Positions 7,152-61,651 of a stretch of 64,000 nucleotides of DNA are shown here, piece after piece. The notes beneath the pieces are model-generated. The model was given only the letters and a program-made list of their open reading frames with translations. It was not told where the DNA came from and searched no databases. The position numbers and the translations under genes were made by a program. The stretch's first letter is position 1. Every line of letters begins with the position of its first letter. Source of the stretch: a virus; the IMG/VR virus record IMGVR_UViG_3300047462_000154, positions 108,316 through 172,315 of that record; one strand, 5' to 3'.

Positions 7152-9276
7152 TAGTAGAGTGCCAAGAGGATATAATACCACTTCTGATTCAATGAAAATT
7201 AGAAATAATTCGATTTATTTGGGTTTCATTAAAGAAAATTCTGATGCACAACGCATGGGGCGCTTAAAAGTTTGGATTCCAGAATTAGGTTCTTCATCTG
7301 CTGATGACCCAAATGGGTGGATTATTGTTTCATATGCAAGCATGTTTGCTGGTGCAACAAATCCAGCAGATGTTAATGGTTCATCACAAACAATGTCTGG
7401 TTCACAACAATCTTATGGTTGGTGGGGAATTCCGCCAGATATTAATAACCAAGTATTGGTTTGTTTTGTTAATGGTGAAATATCAAGAGGATATTGGTTT
7501 GCATGTGTTTATCAACAAAACATGAACCATATGATTCCTGGAATTGCTTGTAATATTCCTACAACACAAACTGCTGGCAATACATATCTTCCACCTGTTG
7601 TTGAATATAATAAAATAAATCAAACAGACCCAGATAATCCGAGAAGACCGCCATTCACGCCATTGGCAAATGGACTGGTTACAGAGGGGCTACAGGCTGA
7701 CCCTGAACGCGGACCATCATCTACGTCAGCAAGAAGGGAAGCCCCTTCAGCGGTCTTTGGATACCTTACACCACGTGGCAATACAATTCATGTTGATGAT
7801 AATCCAGAAAATGAATTTATTAGATTAAGAACAAGAAGTGGGACACAAATTTTAATCGATGAAACCACTGGTATGGTTTATATAAATTCTAAATTAGGTA
7901 ATGCTTGGTTAGAAGTTTCTGATGCTGGTGTAGATGTATATTCAGCAAATTCTGTATCTATTCGTGCACAACAAGATTTTAATGTAAGAGCCGATAGAAA
8001 TATTATTTTTGATGCTGGTGGAAGTATTTTATTAAAAGCTGCACAAGATGTTAATATCCAATCAGCGAATGATATTGTTCTTGGTTCTGGAAATCAATTG
8101 GTATTATCATCTGTGAACAATACAAGTTTAACGGTTGGTTCTGATTTTAATTTAAGTGTAAGTGGGGATTTTGCAACACAAACAGGTGGTAATTTAACAG
8201 AAAGTGTTGGTGCTGATATTGTAAGAAATGCAATTAATATTTTAGATAATTCTGGTAATGCACCAAATGTAAATCCAAATGTTGCGGTTGTGCCTCAACC
8301 AAAGAATTTACCAGATATTCAATCAGGAGCATTATCAACTTTAGAAAGCATTGTTAGTAGAATGCCTACACACGAACCAGCGTCTTCAGTGCATCCAGCA
8401 TTTGGTGTGCCATTAACATCTGGTGAAGCAGATTTTCCACCAAATCAAGGACAAGGTTCGGCTGGTGGTGCAACAGGAACAGTAACTAAAACTGTTGCAA
8501 CCGGAACTGGCAATCAAAATATCAAAACAAATTTGGCAGCGGGATGCCAAAGCGGAGTATCAACTGTACCTGTTCCAACAGAATCTTGGAATGCTATTAA
8601 AGCAGGCAGTGCAGCATCGGGTGCAGATTTTGGAACCATGGCTGCTATTGCACAAGTAGAATCTGGTTTTCAACCTAATGCATATAATCCTTCAAGTGCC
8701 ACTGGAATGTTTCAATTTGAAGGAAGAACATGGACCGAAATGGTAACTAAGTATGGAAGTCAATATAATTTATCAGAAGGTAATATTACAGACCCAGTAG
8801 CAAACGCCACTGCTGGTGGTTTATATGCAAATCAAAATGCACAAACTTTGTCTAATAATGGTGTTGCAAATTCTTCATCTGCTGGGAATCTGTACCTTAG
8901 TCATTTACTCGGTCCTGGCGGCGCAACAACAGTTATTGATGCTGTTGCGACAAATCCAAATGCACCTATTTCAAGTTTACCATCTGGAACATACAATAAT
9001 ATTCAAAACAACCCGTCTTGGCTCAACGGTAACCAATCGGGAGTTAATTTAGGCAGTGACCCAACCGTTGGTGATTATTATAATAACTTAACAGGGCATA
9101 TGAATGCATTAGCATCTGCTTATGATTCCCAAGCTGGATTGCCAGCACCATGCGATAGACAAAACTCAACATCAACAAGTGGAACAACTGGCGCATCTAC
9201 AAATTCAACCACTTCTGCTACTGGTGCATCATCTACTGGTGCAGCAATTGGAGTTTTAGGAAGCGGAGACCAATGA
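7141..9276 (+). CDS. Baseplate central spike gp5-like protein with C-terminal lytic transglycosylase (SLT) domain
   Basis: OB-fold DAQRMGRLKVWIPEL, SYGWWGIPPDINNQVLVCF, beta-helix repeats, AIAQVESGFQPNA...ATGMFQF SLT motif; probable start ATG 7141 (track gives 7126). Confidence 0.85.
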   Translation: MVANSRVPRGYNTTSDSMKIRNNSIYLGFIKENSDAQRMGRLKVWIPELGSSSADDPNGWIIVSYASMFAGATNPADVNGSSQTMSGSQQSYGWWGIPPDINNQVLVCFVNGEISRGYWFACVYQQNMNHMIPGIACNIPTTQTAGNTYLPPVVEYNKINQTDPDNPRRPPFTPLANGLVTEGLQADPERGPSSTSARREAPSAVFGYLTPRGNTIHVDDNPENEFIRLRTRSGTQILIDETTGMVYINSKLGNAWLEVSDAGVDVYSANSVSIRAQQDFNVRADRNIIFDAGGSILLKAAQDVNIQSANDIVLGSGNQLVLSSVNNTSLTVGSDFNLSVSGDFATQTGGNLTESVGADIVRNAINILDNSGNAPNVNPNVAVVPQPKNLPDIQSGALSTLESIVSRMPTHEPASSVHPAFGVPLTSGEADFPPNQGQGSAGGATGTVTKTVATGTGNQNIKTNLAAGCQSGVSTVPVPTESWNAIKAGSAASGADFGTMAAIAQVESGFQPNAYNPSSATGMFQFEGRTWTEMVTKYGSQYNLSEGNITDPVANATAGGLYANQNAQTLSNNGVANSSSAGNLYLSHLLGPGGATTVIDAVATNPNAPISSLPSGTYNNIQNNPSWLNGNQSGVNLGSDPTVGDYYNNLTGHMNALASAYDSQAGLPAPCDRQNSTSTSGTTGASTNSTTSATGASSTGAAIGVLGSGDQ

Positions 9277-9287
9277 ATATGAATTTA

Positions 9288-10577
9288 TTAATCATCGCTT
9301 GACGCTAATTCTTCGGCTTTTGGAATTACGTTTTTGACCATATTTTGAATTTTTTTAGTATATTTATTTCCAGTAGAATCATATGCAACCAATGTTCTTG
9401 CTAACAATATTGGATTTAATTCATCACCATGTTTTCTCATATAATATCTTGCTTGTCTAAATTTTTTATAAGCAGGATTTGTATTTAAATTATGCATATA
9501 AGCTTGAACAGATTGATTTATATTTGCATAAGATGCAAAATCATTTGAATCTCTTGAAGCTTTTTGACCAAATAAAGAATGATTATTTACAGCAAATTTA
9601 GAACTGCCCCATCCGCTTTCTAATGCGGCTTGTGATAATGTTAAAACTGTTGGAATTACATCAACTCTTGATAATAATTCCTTGATATCATTTGACCCAT
9701 ATTTTTTGGATATTAATTGAAATTTTGCTGTTTGATGATTATCTAGATTTGACTTATTTTCAATATGGATAAGAAAATTTCTATCTGATAAAATACTATC
9801 ATTTTCTTTATCGATTAGGGGTTTTATTTTAAGAATGAATGCTTTTTTGATTTGTTCTGGAGTTTGTTGCACTGTATTCGATTGATTTGGTTTTTCGCTT
9901 TGCATCATGGTATCTAATGTATTGATTGATGGTGCATCGCCTTCATCGGAAGTATGGGCAACAGCGTGATGTAAAACTGGTGCTGGTGGATTGGCGAATT
10001 TGTATAATGAATTACCACCCATACCTAAACCTAATGCGAGTGCTGCTGAACCTAATGTTTTACCAAATGATGCTTCTTCCAAAGTTATTTGTAAATCATT
10101 ATAATTTTTCCATAATACTAAAACATCACCACCATTTGGATAATTTGTAAGCATACCATCAAAATTTAACACATGTTGAAAATATGTAGAAATTCTTGAA
10201 ATTAATTTTTTTCTATCTACATTAATAATTGAATAGCCATCTGTAGCCCACCATAAAAAATTATATTTTCCTTCAACGTTTGGAATCACAATTGAAGGAA
10301 ATATGGAAAATATATTTTTTAAATCTGTGTCATTTAATTTATAATTTTTTGGTGCTATTTTTAACCAATTTGGAATAACAACTTTATATAAATTTGGTCC
10401 ATATTTTTTTGCATATTCTTTATTTTTATAAAAATATATTCCTTTTCCTAATAGAGAAAATGAATCTTCATCAACGTTAAAATATTGAAATACAGCGTTG
10501 CTTCCATGATAAAATATTGAAGATTTTTTTATTTCTTCTAAAAATAATTCATCATCAAAAAACTCTTCAATTAACAT
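9288..10577 (-). CDS. ADP-ribosyltransferase-like N-domain fused through a hydrophobic helix to a Bax/FlgJ-type glucosaminidase
   Basis: YHGS...LGKGIYF...AKKYG (ART-like); QAALESGWGSSKFA..NHSLFG and YMHNLNTNPAY (GH73/Bax). Confidence 0.7.
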   Translation of the reverse strand: MLIEEFFDDELFLEEIKKSSIFYHGSNAVFQYFNVDEDSFSLLGKGIYFYKNKEYAKKYGPNLYKVVIPNWLKIAPKNYKLNDTDLKNIFSIFPSIVIPNVEGKYNFLWWATDGYSIINVDRKKLISRISTYFQHVLNFDGMLTNYPNGGDVLVLWKNYNDLQITLEEASFGKTLGSAALALGLGMGGNSLYKFANPPAPVLHHAVAHTSDEGDAPSINTLDTMMQSEKPNQSNTVQQTPEQIKKAFILKIKPLIDKENDSILSDRNFLIHIENKSNLDNHQTAKFQLISKKYGSNDIKELLSRVDVIPTVLTLSQAALESGWGSSKFAVNNHSLFGQKASRDSNDFASYANINQSVQAYMHNLNTNPAYKKFRQARYYMRKHGDELNPILLARTLVAYDSTGNKYTKKIQNMVKNVIPKAEELASSDD

Positions 10578-55069: not shown

Positions 55070-57946
55070 TTAACTTTCCTCTACATAAGTTTTACATCTA
55101 TCGCATAATTTTTTTGATGTATCATCATGCGATAAAGTTCCAAACACATTATGTTTCCAACATCTTTCGCATTTTTGTTGAAAATGGTTTACAAGTTTAA
55201 AAGTTTGTCCAGGTTTTTGGCGTATCGTAGCACCAGCAACACCAAATAAATTTTCCCAATCTTTAAAAACCCAACGATTAAAACCAAGGAAATAATACTC
55301 AGATGGTACAATTACATGTCTTTCTAAAGCAGAATTTATCTGTTTTTTAGAACGCAAATCTTCCAATTGTTTCATAACTTCTACTCTGATAGATTTAATA
55401 TTTTGCAAAAATTCAGGAAATTCAAAATATTTTTCAACATCCGTCAAACCAAAATCAAACTCCACTATATCAAATGTTTGACAATGAACAGATGTTTCTT
55501 TTCCAAAAGCAGATTGCCATGCTTCTTCTGTTGCAAATGGTATCACTGGTGCTAACCAACGAACCAAATGATGAAAAATTAAAACATAAGTATCTAAAGC
55601 AAATACTCTATTTGGTGTATTTGTAAAACCACCACAATAAAGAACATCTTTTCTCGCATCAAAATACATTGATAAATCATTCAAACAAAAATTGTATATT
55701 TCTAATACAACTTTTTTCCAATCATGATTTTCAACAGCAGCCAAAACCATTTTATTAATGGCATCCATACGCAATAAAATATAATGTTCCAACCAAACTT
55801 TATTACCAATTTTGAAATCATATCGTTTTTTGATTTCATCAAAAGTTTCAATCGGATTTTCACATAATGACCCAAGCAAATACCGCAATGTGTTTCTAAA
55901 TTTTTTATACATCTCCGCTTGCTGTTTCATTACGTCATCACCAATTTTCACATCTTCAGTCGCATCACATGTCGCAACCCAAAGACGCAAAACATCAGCA
56001 CCAAATTCACTGATTATTTTTTCAGGAGGAATTACATTACCATCCGATTTAGACATTTTCTTACCATGTTTGTCCAAAACAAAACCATCAGTAATCAATG
56101 TTTTAAATGGCGCAGAACCACGCTTATGATAATCTGATTTTGAATATCCACATGACTCAATCAAAGACGCCTGGAACCAACCACGATGTTGGTCCGAACC
56201 TTCAAGATAAACATCAGCTTTTGGCAATCCACGAGATTCTAAAACATATGCAAAAGAACATCCCGATTCAAACCAAACATCTACAATATCCATAATCATT
56301 TCATAATCATCAGGATTATATTCAGATACACCATAAGCATTTAAAAAATAATCTGCATTTTCCTTAAACCAAATATCAGCACCAAATTTTTGAATATAAT
56401 CGTCAATTGCGCCATCAACATCACAATCACGCAATATTTCACCAGTTTGCTTATGAACAAACAAAGTAATCGGAACACCCCAAGTGCGTTGTCTTGAAAT
56501 ACACCAATCAGGTCTTGATTGAACCATTGCTGTTAAACGATTTCTTGAAATATCTGGGATGAATTTAACATCATCCAAAGATTTCAAACTACGTTCACGA
56601 ATGGTCATACCATCATTATCTGTGGCTGACATATTAATAAACCATTGCGGTGTAGCAAGATAGATTAATGGGGCTTTAGAACGCCATGAGACAGCCGTAG
56701 AATGGGTCATATCTTTGGTGCATACCAAAATCTCATTATCTCCCAAAGCCTTTAAAACCGCTTGTAGAGCCTTATAAATATGCATACCACCGAACACTGG
56801 TAAATCAGATTTATATGTTCCATCTTTTAAAACATAATCTGTTAATGAAATCTTATTTTTCTTACATAGATAGAAATCATCTAAACCATGTGATGGTGCA
56901 ATGTGAACAATACCTGTGCCTGTTTCAGCAGTAACAAAATCACCATGTAAAACAGGAATTTCATCACTAAATATATTTTTACAAACTATTTTTTTCATAT
57001 AATCAGATTGAATGATATAAAGTATTGATGCTTTTATTTCAGCATTTTTACAAAAATCATCTAAAAGATTAGATGCTATAATAAAACGTTCGCCTTTTTT
57101 CATACCACCAAGAGTGGCACTAAACCCTGATGTTTCTGTTACAGAAAATAAAGCATATTCAATATTTTCATTGATAGCCAATGCTTTATTTGTAGGTAAA
57201 GTCCAAGGTGTAGTGGTCCATGCGATTAATGATGTATTTGGTGGTAATTGAAAATGTGGTTCAAATTCTTCTTGTCTTTCAAAACCACAAGAAAATACTG
57301 GAAATTTCACATAAATTGATGTGATTTTTTTTATCAACATATTCAACTTCCGCTTCTGCCAAAGAAGTTTGTTCAACAGGACTCCAGAAAACAGGACGAA
57401 AATCTCTATATAAATTCTTATGTGAAAAACTTCTGATTTCAGAAGCAATTTTTGCTTCTGTTTCATAATCCATAGAGTCAAATATGGTTGTTTCCAATCA
57501 GCAAAAATTCCAAGTCTTTGAAATTCTTGTGATTGAATATTTACCCAATGTTGAGCATATTCACGACATTCTTTTCTAAATTCTTCAACTGAAATATCAT
57601 TTTTATTTCTACCAGATTTTCTAAAATTTTCTTCAACCGCCCATTCAATCGGCAAGCCATGACAATCCCAGCCAGGAATAAAACTAACTTTTTTTCCTGC
57701 CATTGATTGTGTATTTGTTATTATTGATTTTCGACAAACATTGAAACTATGTCCAATGTGCGTGGAAAAATTGGCGTAAGGCGGTCCACTATGAAGAACA
57801 AACATTTTTGTTTTTCCTTCATTTCTTAAATTGTAAATGTCTTTTTTATTCCATTCAGAAATTATTTCTGGCTCTGATTTGAGAAAATCAGGACGCAATT
57901 TATAATCCGTTTTGGGTAGAAAAATGGTATCTTTAATGTCTTTCAT
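55070..57946 (-). CDS. ileS: Isoleucyl-tRNA synthetase (type 1) with a ~50-codon out-of-frame segment
   Basis: GPPYAN..HIGH, PGWDCHGLPIE, WTTTPWT, DWCISRQRTWG, EGSDQHRGWF, KMSKS, C-terminal CERC..CDRC. Confidence 0.93.
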   Translation of the reverse strand: MKDIKDTIFLPKTDYKLRPDFLKSEPEIISEWNKKDIYNLRNEGKTKMFVLHSGPPYANFSTHIGHSFNVCRKSIITNTQSMAGKKVSFIPGWDCHGLPIEWAVEENFRKSGRNKNDISVEEFRKECREYAQHWVNIQSQEFQRLGIFADWKQPYLTLWIMKQKQKLLLKSEVFHIRIYIEIFVLFSGVLLNKLLWQKRKLNMLIKKITSIYVKFPVFSCGFERQEEFEPHFQLPPNTSLIAWTTTPWTLPTNKALAINENIEYALFSVTETSGFSATLGGMKKGERFIIASNLLDDFCKNAEIKASILYIIQSDYMKKIVCKNIFSDEIPVLHGDFVTAETGTGIVHIAPSHGLDDFYLCKKNKISLTDYVLKDGTYKSDLPVFGGMHIYKALQAVLKALGDNEILVCTKDMTHSTAVSWRSKAPLIYLATPQWFINMSATDNDGMTIRERSLKSLDDVKFIPDISRNRLTAMVQSRPDWCISRQRTWGVPITLFVHKQTGEILRDCDVDGAIDDYIQKFGADIWFKENADYFLNAYGVSEYNPDDYEMIMDIVDVWFESGCSFAYVLESRGLPKADVYLEGSDQHRGWFQASLIESCGYSKSDYHKRGSAPFKTLITDGFVLDKHGKKMSKSDGNVIPPEKIISEFGADVLRLWVATCDATEDVKIGDDVMKQQAEMYKKFRNTLRYLLGSLCENPIETFDEIKKRYDFKIGNKVWLEHYILLRMDAINKMVLAAVENHDWKKVVLEIYNFCLNDLSMYFDARKDVLYCGGFTNTPNRVFALDTYVLIFHHLVRWLAPVIPFATEEAWQSAFGKETSVHCQTFDIVEFDFGLTDVEKYFEFPEFLQNIKSIRVEVMKQLEDLRSKKQINSALERHVIVPSEYYFLGFNRWVFKDWENLFGVAGATIRQKPGQTFKLVNHFQQKCERCWKHNVFGTLSHDDTSKKLCDRCKTYVEES

Positions 57947-61402: not shown

Positions 61403-61489
61403 TGGAGGGCTTAGTTGGATTCGAACCAACGCGGGATTACTCCGTGGGTTTAAAAGACCCTGCCAATCGACCACTCTGACCATAAGCCC
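61403..61489 (-). tRNA. Atypical tRNA-Lys(UUU) with long variable arm
   Basis: GGGCTTA/TAAGCCC acceptor, GGGT-CTTTTAA-ACCC anticodon arm, GGA-GTAA-TCC variable arm, GTTGG-TTCGAAT-CCAAC T arm, U73, CCA; 87 nt. Confidence 0.85.
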
Positions 61490-61503
61490 ATAATTTAGAC
61501 AAT

Positions 61504-61526
61504 AAAAAACCCCATTTCAGGGGTTT
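61504..61526 (-). terminator. Intrinsic terminator between leader and tRNA-Lys
   Basis: AAACCCC-TGAAAT-GGGGTTT-TTT on the minus strand, ending 14 nt before the tRNA 5' end. Confidence 0.8.
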
Positions 61527-61561
61527 ATGGCGCACAACATCTTAATGAGATTGAAAAGGTA

Positions 61562-61615
61562 TTATCCCTCAAATCCCTCGGATGTAGTGCGCAAAAATTT
61601 TCGTTTAGTGTTCAT
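61562..61615 (-). CDS. Putative leader peptide MNTKRKFLRTTSEGFEG
   Basis: 17-codon ORF whose ATG is 7 nt after the -10 box; AAA codons at positions 4 and 6. Confidence 0.55.
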   Translation of the reverse strand: MNTKRKFLRTTSEGFEG

Positions 61616-61622
61616 GATTCTA

Positions 61623-61651
61623 TTTATATATTATTTCAAAAGTTAAGTCAA
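61623..61651 (-). promoter_or_regulatory. Sigma70-type promoter overlapping a T4-type late box
   Basis: TTGACT-17 nt-TATAAA, with TATAAATA embedded. Confidence 0.7.

Follow-up and report, generated by a model that had tools for sequence, protein, structure and literature searches.

Can a short open reading frame (ORF) that stands before a phage tRNA gene sense the supply of the codons which that tRNA reads? The question is raised by a locus in a 64,000-nucleotide (nt) stretch of virus DNA, here called the window, which is the final 64 kb of the 172,315-base-pair (bp) record IMGVR_UViG_3300047462_000154 (31% G+C). In this window, a tRNA gene with the anticodon UUU lies behind a leader (hereafter the Lys leader) that comprises a promoter, a mini-ORF containing two AAA codons and an intrinsic terminator. 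An earlier note, written from the sequence, took this arrangement for a putative attenuator in which a ribosome stalled at the AAA codons allows read-through into the tRNA gene. The analysis described here points instead to a family of ribosome-read leaders before phage tRNA genes, of which the Lys copy would be a shortened and largely constitutive derivative, an overall reading that we hold with evenly balanced confidence. For the family as a whole, the in silico evidence that leader peptides control phage tRNA genes is good. The elements of the Lys locus are as follows (window coordinates).

61646-61651, minus strand: -35 hexamer TTGACT, read directly; TTGACTT with a 17-nt spacer recurs at the leader before tRNA-Trp and tRNA-Phe and in L021 and L018 (see below)
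61621-61628, minus strand: -10 hexamer TATAAA (61628-61623), overlapped by the T4-late-type motif TATAAATA, both read directly
61562-61615, minus strand: mini-ORF MNTKRKFLRTTSEGFEG, 17 codons and a stop (61564-61562), probably leaderless
61598-61606, minus strand: AAA-CGA-AAA, codons 4-6, the proposed sensor codons
61581-61592, minus strand: 5′ strand of a 12-bp clamp helix, inside ORF codons 8-12; 11 of 12 positions pair with 61530-61541 in the minimum-energy fold
61530-61541, minus strand: 3′ strand of the clamp helix
61544-61579, minus strand: hairpin P2, whose loop holds the stop codon and whose 5′ arm is a 20-nt box (61560-61579); conserved in the leader before tRNA-Trp and tRNA-Phe
61501-61526, minus strand: intrinsic terminator with a 7-bp stem (4 G-C pairs), a 6-nt loop and a U6-A-UU tail (stem-loop 61526-61507; terminator scan)
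61403-61489, minus strand: tRNA gene of 87 nt, anticodon UUU, long variable arm (3-bp stem, GUAA loop), U73 and encoded CCA (ARAGORN and Rfam)

All the parts that the earlier note had listed, namely the promoter, the ATG, the 17-codon ORF, AAA at codons 4 and 6, the 11/12 helix, the terminator and, beginning 14 nt beyond the U6 run, the tRNA, are found in place. TTGACT and TATAAA are separated by a 17-nt spacer, and the ATG at 61615 lies 7 nt past TATAAA and 5 nt past TATAAATA. The leader is strongly structured, with a folding energy of -36.1 kcal/mol (z = -4.1) that was equalled by none of 200 shuffles. Its terminator is one of four that the scan found in 6 kb, versus 1.8 in shuffles, and no separate promoter was seen in the 14 nt between terminator and tRNA.

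Folding of the Lys leader

To model a ribosome, the bases from -15 to +14 nt around the A-site codon were kept unpaired, and folding was computed at equilibrium throughout. Under this model, the Lys terminator has a pairing probability of about 0.97-0.99 at every ribosome position (0.984 on the free RNA versus 0.973 on the stalled one). The release of an antiterminator by the stalled ribosome, on which the earlier note built its model, is therefore not reproduced; folds with and without the ribosome-covered segment alike keep the terminator. When the proposed antiterminator AGGGAUUU is forced, the leader reaches -15.2 or -14.4 kcal/mol, versus -21.9 or -20.1 kcal/mol with the terminator; under a stalled ribosome, the terminator fold is favoured over this antiterminator by 5.5-6.7 kcal/mol. 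Pairing the C-run of the terminator elsewhere costs 5.5-9.9 kcal/mol in any fold. The 7/8 match between the leader and the 5′ arm of the terminator that had suggested this pairing does exist and is reached in only 2-3% of shuffles, but the antiterminator that it would form is not competitive.

The terminator persists because the segment that would have to invade it is the 5′ arm of P2, and a stall at codons 4-6 leaves this arm intact, opening just the lower half of the clamp helix. The 3′ strand of the clamp lies just 3 nt from the terminator and therefore cannot pair with it. Four other alternatives are covered by the ensemble without being competitive. In two of them the clamp 3′ strand pairs, either with the P2 3′ arm or with the loop and the 3′ arm of the terminator; in the third, the segment immediately upstream of the terminator pairs with the 5′ end of the tRNA, and in the fourth the A-rich Lys codons pair with the U-tract. 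Long-range pairing between leader and tRNA, seen in some constrained folds, was also rejected, since it arises after the termination decision and depends on an energy model that underrates the cloverleaf.

The Lys copy thus has an intrinsic terminator before its gene and lacks an antiterminator that excludes this terminator and is favoured on a stall at the regulatory codons. The terminator is itself weak (four G-C pairs; -10.1 kcal/mol for the hairpin alone, versus -17.7 kcal/mol for the terminator before tRNA-Trp), and substantial read-through is therefore plausible without any switch. The number of Lys codons, which the earlier note proposed as the sensor, is no higher than chance, with two AAA in 16 codons (p = 0.29).

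Sister leaders and their codons

A paralogue of the Lys leader was found by listing the flanks of all tRNA genes in the genome. It lies outside the window, 160 kb from the Lys leader, as does the tRNA locus that it precedes.

Genome 9379-9574, minus strand: paralogous leader (the Trp/Phe leader)
Genome 9206-9378, minus strand: tRNA-Trp(CCA) and tRNA-Phe(GAA)

TTGACTT and the 17-nt spacer are the same in both leaders, and the -10 hexamer of the Trp/Phe leader lies 6 nt before its ATG (7 nt in the Lys leader). The first nine bases of the ORF, ATGAACACT, have exactly two occurrences in the 172-kb genome, which are these two leaders, and the 20-nt box that ends the ORF is likewise found in the genome only here, with 18 of its 20 bases identical. 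The first 9 nt and the last ~20 nt are thus common to the 17-codon ORF and to the 32-codon ORF before tRNA-Trp and tRNA-Phe, in frame in both. Both ORFs end with EGF(E/G)G and a stop, followed by a terminator and then by tRNA. Both leaders retain P2. The 3′ arm of this hairpin has diverged between them, and the change at box position 6, from A-U to U-A, is compensatory; the 5′ arm, together with the peptide end that it encodes, is kept more strictly than pairing alone requires.

The Trp/Phe ORF carries F8-W9-R10-F11 in the first pairing segment, W24 and F30 farther on, and also Y16, and its strong terminator adjoins tRNA-Trp. Here the terminator responds to the ribosome. Its pairing probability is 0.93 without a ribosome and 0.07-0.43 with the ribosome at codons 2-8, drops to 0.00-0.01 with W9, R10, F11 or T12 in the A site, and stands at 0.97 for codon 15 and all later positions up to the stop. 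In the stalled state, a 26-nt segment of the ORF forms a long helix with both terminator arms, enclosing P2. With the ribosome stalled, this antiterminator fold is favoured over the terminator fold by 3.5 kcal/mol, whereas without a ribosome the terminator fold is favoured by 1.6 kcal/mol, so that an antiterminator that excludes the terminator and is favoured on a stall at regulatory codons is found in the paralogue. Switching of this kind was seen in only 3 of 300 dinucleotide shuffles. In the folding model, then, the Trp/Phe leader is predicted to act as a textbook 1:2 / 2:3 / 3:4 attenuator. Aligned to it, the Lys leader lacks ~45 nt, which are the antiterminator strand, and its codon homologous to W9 is UUG.

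Right after tRNA-Phe, at about genome 9113-9201 on the minus strand (L013:14-102), there is a tRNA-like gene of 85-90 nt with the loop CUGUAAA (Tyr), an 8-nt T-loop and an ACCA end, which was missed by both ARAGORN and Rfam. With its Tyr anticodon it would make the operon Trp-Phe-Tyr, and Y16 of the leader ORF is a Tyr codon.

A promoter-proximal mini-ORF before tRNA is indeed a recurring design, found at the Trp/Phe locus of this genome and in related phages at two further loci.

L006:1318-1650 (IMGVR_UViG_3300047462_000407): Glu/Asp leader, before tRNA-Glu(UUC) and tRNA-Asp(GUC), with the module TTGACA-17-TATAAATA-N5-ATG
L021 (IMGVR_UViG_3300047174_000129): Arg leader, with the ORF MNTQARNRLRQSRR, in which AGA occurs three times and AGG once in 13 codons

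The Glu/Asp contig carries a neighbour gene that is 64% identical, and its leader ORF, MSTIHTQPERDTEERFFLR, contains GAA three times and GAT once. The second hairpin of this leader has a probability of 0.92-0.94 with the ribosome at codons 2-5, of 0.00 at codons 8-14 (E9, D11, E13 and E14), and of 0.86-0.99 afterwards. The downstream spacer, which contains C and is poor in G, becomes paired in the stalled state. The modelled folds hint at an output of the Rho or processing type for this leader.

The fourth leader, that of Arg, was found with a pattern built from the promoters and ORF starts of the other three, on a phage contig that has several proteins in common with this genome (59% amino acid identity over 404 amino acids). 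The last codons of its ORF form a terminator-like hairpin, and downstream of it lie a tRNA-like gene (UCU) and then tRNA-Arg(CCU). This UCU gene (L021:10436-10521) has a stunted D-arm and a long variable region and scores only 25 bits, against the tRNA-Sec model. The same pattern also matches a 9-codon ORF, MNTKRRFAG (L018), which shares K4 with the Lys ORF and precedes a tail-fibre-like gene in surroundings that hold no tRNA.

The pattern has 41 matches in bacterial genomes, none of them near tRNA; one of these chance matches (L157:1084-1500, in the contig JALSQH010000012.1 of a bacterial metagenome-assembled genome) heads an apparent CRISPR array in which a ~30-nt repeat occurs at least five times. 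Relaxed promoter-plus-ATG patterns, with 120 and 16 matches, yielded no additional convincing member, and the shared 20-nt box has two matches in IMG/VR, both by chance and inside coding sequence. Two candidates were rejected: L139 has a mini-ORF before tRNA-Thr/Ala whose codons do not match, and in L092, where an array of 23 tRNAs is preceded by an ORF and a terminator, no switch is predicted.

The content of cognate codons in each leader was tested against the codon usage of its own source; these tests are post hoc and the sample, four leaders, is small.

Lys leader: 2 cognate codons of 16, p = 0.29
Trp/Phe leader: 5 of 31, p = 0.038
Glu/Asp leader: 4 of 18, p = 0.18
Arg leader: 4 of 13, p = 2e-5

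Across the four leaders, Fisher's combined p is 3.6e-5. In a 4 x 4 table of ORFs by tRNA sets, the true pairing scores 15 and is the best of the 24 permutations, the next best scoring 11. The codon match is real at the level of the family, and it is carried by the members other than Lys.

Promoters and competing explanations

The region holds no excess of promoter-like hexamers (33 observed versus 42 expected), and the promoter scan omits the Lys -10 since its rule demands T at the final -10 position. The consensus alone is thus insufficient, and the Lys promoter is credible only because the same module recurs at the other leaders. The overlapping motif TATAAATA, which we take to be the T4 late-promoter box, has 28 copies in the genome, 16 of which fall in the intergenic 9.7%. 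The copies lie mostly 19-34 nt upstream of start codons, or exactly 5 nt, so that the motif stands upstream of genes at fixed distances, as a late promoter of the T4 type does. It is presumably used by a late sigma factor of the phage. The exact 5-nt distance to an ATG occurs at five sites (p = 8e-6), which belong to four ordinary genes and the Lys mini-ORF. These sites are at window 62033, 33509 and 61621 and at genome 31372 and 43434, and the four genes encode about 124-428 amino acids and include the 123-amino-acid gene just upstream of the leader. Judged by this spacing, late transcripts of the phage often seem to be leaderless, and the sharing of TATAAATA-N5-ATG with four ordinary genes supports the suggestion of the earlier note that the Lys mini-ORF is leaderless, which it probably is.

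Put together, the Lys stretch would be one transcription unit headed by a sigma70-type promoter with the late-type TATAAATA box overlapping it. The 17-codon ORF would begin at or beside the first base of the transcript, and would be followed by P2, with the stop codon in its loop and the 12-bp helix clamping it, by the weak terminator and by a tRNA(UUU) of class II shape. As a shortened derivative that appears to have dispensed with the ~45-nt antiterminator strand of the Trp/Phe leader, it would most likely throttle tRNA-Lys output, from early and from late promoters alike, in a leaky and largely constitutive manner. Sensing of Lys codons would then either have been lost or operate in a manner invisible to equilibrium folding. 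In this picture the anatomy, the paralogy and the fold and codon statistics are shown by the sequence, whereas the point at which transcription starts, the translation of the ORF, the leakiness of the terminator and any regulation are inferred.

Several points weigh against this reading. The near-perfect 12-bp clamp, the maintenance of P2 and the strong structure (z = -4.1) oppose simple decay, and the Lys leader probably still does something, e.g., in processing, stability or pausing, or as a kinetic switch. The AAA codons stand just 5′ of the clamp, whose lower half a stalled ribosome would open, and this is a sensor-like geometry. Kinetic or protein-assisted switches would be missed by equilibrium folding with a crude ribosome footprint. 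As for the family, the switchable Glu/Asp hairpin lacks a U-tract, and the tRNA-linked members number only four and were found partly with a pattern of our own making. Lastly, no relative spanning the Lys locus was found: searches of the phage collection with blastn and tblastn gave only an unrelated tRNA-Tyr and weak protein matches, pattern and protein scans of IMG/VR gave nothing useful, and both flanking genes have homologues on short contigs, which break off ahead of the tRNA or show a different neighbour, the best of them (64% and 76% amino acid identity) stopping inside the flanking gene.

The model of the earlier note, in which the Lys leader is a working attenuator whose clamp is opened by a stall at AAA4/AAA6 so that read-through provides tRNA(UUU) when it is needed, possibly after anticodon nucleases have cut host tRNA-Lys, is the strongest competitor, although we think it doubtful. 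Cognate-codon sensing is supported by the three sister leaders, the start and the end of the ORF are conserved with the stop inside a conserved hairpin, and the AAA codons lie 6-14 nt upstream of the clamp 5′ strand, of which a stall at codon 6 would open the first 6-7 pairs. The 7/8 complementarity to the terminator arm is also seen in few shuffles, and PARIS is known to cleave host tRNA-Lys while phage T5 escapes by means of a variant tRNA-Lys (PMC11464382). However, the segment that the model needs is locked in P2, so that the terminator is predicted to stay formed throughout and the antiterminator is energetically uncompetitive; the two AAA codons are at chance frequency; 'MNTKR' also opens the ORF before the tail-fibre-like gene; and the position of W9 is held by UUG in the Lys copy. 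No defence gene context was found at the locus, and the family serves many tRNA species. Because the sister leaders serve Trp, Phe, Glu, Asp and Arg tRNAs, any sensing would concern general tRNA supply and not Lys-specific counter-defence.

A bolder form of the same idea treats the leaders as a programmable scaffold, with the same start, the same stop-in-loop hairpin and exchangeable sensor codons. On this scaffold the Lys copy would be an on-demand switch, in which AAA stalls, e.g., after cutting of the PrrC or AriB type, would raise read-through into an oddly built and perhaps nuclease-proof tRNA(UUU), and it would form an inducible counter-defence together with the Trp/Phe and the other sister switches. 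We regard this as improbable.

Still less probable, in our judgement, is that the unit from promoter to terminator is a gene of its own, which makes a structured small RNA of ~110 nt and/or a 17-residue peptide, the tRNA being made by read-through. A promoter, a strongly folded RNA and an intrinsic terminator do constitute a complete small-RNA gene, and the P2 5′ arm and the EGF(E/G)G end are kept beyond the needs of pairing. Trans-acting attenuator RNAs and leader peptides are moreover documented for Sinorhizobium (PMC6614838, PMC7298713). However, all four tRNA-linked members abut tRNA genes and the codons of their ORFs track those tRNAs, and the 14 nt between terminator and tRNA hold no separate promoter.

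A chance arrangement, in which hairpins, a short ORF and a promoter-like site came together by accident in an AT-rich intergenic spacer before a tRNA, is very improbable. Promoter-like sites are indeed no commoner than in shuffles, and short ORFs and AAA are common at 31% G+C, but the fold has z = -4.1, the promoter, together with the start and the end of the ORF, is repeated exactly at one other tRNA locus, the only such repeat in the genome, and related modules precede tRNAs in related phages.

The tRNA gene, its setting and known systems

The tRNA(UUU) itself scores 38.9 bits with the Rfam tRNA model (RF00005), versus a cut-off of 29, and folds into a cloverleaf with the 7-nt anticodon loop CUUUUAA, which has U33 and a purine at position 37, and an A27-A43 mismatch. 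Its closest match in the phage database is the class II tRNA-Tyr of a jumbo phage, Agrobacterium phage Atu_ph07. The identity elements for lysyl-tRNA synthetase are the anticodon UUU and A73. To judge from the sequence, this putative lysine acceptor combines the UUU anticodon with a U73 discriminator and a class II, tRNA-Tyr-like body. A second long tRNA(UUU) of 83 nt, also with U73 and a long variable region, is present in another phage contig (L092:7967-8049), and the type therefore recurs. The unpaired variable region and T-arm of this tRNA are almost identical with those of an 84-nt tRNA-Gly(UCC) (L010:1501-1584); it looks as if a 3′ half had been reused between tRNAs of different specificity.

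The record encodes UvsX-like, UvsY-like and dNMP-phosphatase-like proteins (dNMP, deoxynucleoside monophosphate) as well as an isoleucyl-tRNA synthetase, and therefore comes from a T4-like phage. The synthetase, of 958 amino acids (window 55070-57946, minus strand; TIGR00392, 660 bits, above cut-off), lies 3.5 kb from the tRNA-Lys locus. The seven tRNA genes detected by ARAGORN are spread across the genome. AAA is the second commonest codon of the phage (6.3%, ten times AAG) and AGA is its chief Arg codon, and the two tRNAs of the window (UUU and UCU) are therefore compatible with plain codon compensation. In another contig (L001:2590-2660), a homologue of the 123-amino-acid gene upstream of the Lys leader has an antisense tRNA-like sequence after it and a photolyase gene before it; the gene neighbourhood is not conserved. 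No defence or counter-defence genes were seen around the Lys locus, and nothing ties it to PrrC or PARIS.

The nearest known systems are the leader-peptide attenuators of amino-acid operons, such as trpL, hisL, pheL, leuL and thrL (summarised in PMC1183508). The phage leaders resemble them in having a short promoter-proximal ORF with regulatory codons and then an intrinsic terminator, and the Trp/Phe paralogue resembles them also in its mutually exclusive 1:2, 2:3 and 3:4 pairings set by ribosome position. In contrast, those attenuators control biosynthetic enzymes, whereas the phage leaders precede tRNAs, so that their signal would report tRNA supply and not amino-acid supply. The phage ORFs are also probably leaderless and lack a Shine-Dalgarno sequence, and the Lys copy, unlike the classical attenuators, has no competitive antiterminator. 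Searched with Rfam, the Trp/Phe paralogue stays far below the cut-offs of Trp_leader (RF00513; 16.8 bits versus 41) and His_leader (RF00514; 18.2 bits versus 49), with E above 1 for both, and the Lys leader matches neither of them nor any significant family. Homology to the E. coli trpL and pheM peptides was likewise not adopted: the Trp/Phe leader has no match in E. coli genomes by blastn, and the comparison is one of working only.

Control of genes of the decoding apparatus by codon or tRNA supply is known from the pheST operon of E. coli, which encodes Phe-tRNA synthetase and is attenuated by the pheM leader, and from T-box riboswitches, which control synthetase genes. These systems differ from the phage leaders in controlling synthetases and not tRNA genes, and T-boxes bind uncharged tRNA directly without a ribosome; the Rfam search of the leader gave no T-box match. 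In T4, the tRNA cluster is co-transcribed with the stable RNAs C and D, and the late promoters consist of TATAAATA. The likeness lies in tRNA genes transcribed from phage promoters with extra structured RNA and in the same late-promoter motif, enriched between genes. However, the stable RNAs of T4 are not known to be translated or to gate tRNAs, and here the late box is placed for a start at the ATG.

Among phage tRNAs, a tRNA-Lys variant of T5 neutralises PARIS, which cleaves host tRNA-Lys (PMC11464382), and tRNAs with changes in the anticodon loop evade host nucleases (PMC10264068). Like these, the tRNA(UUU) is a phage-borne tRNA that reads AAA and has a body unlike the host type. They differ in that they are not known to sit behind a sensing leader, and no defence context was seen at the Lys locus.

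For decades it has been disputed why phages carry tRNA genes and how they express them. The chief proposals are that these tRNAs provide codon compensation, take the place of degraded host tRNAs or allow escape from anticodon nucleases (PMC10264068). In the literature searched, no published description of attenuators before tRNA genes was found. A short ORF before a tRNA is not automatically a sensor, and the Lys copy, taken alone, has chance codon content. This genome sets side by side, on one scaffold, a complete predicted switch, in the Trp/Phe leader, and a Lys leader without the antiterminator strand. If mini-ORFs are truly written in the codons of the tRNAs downstream of them, the phage would measure decoding speed and make its tRNAs accordingly.

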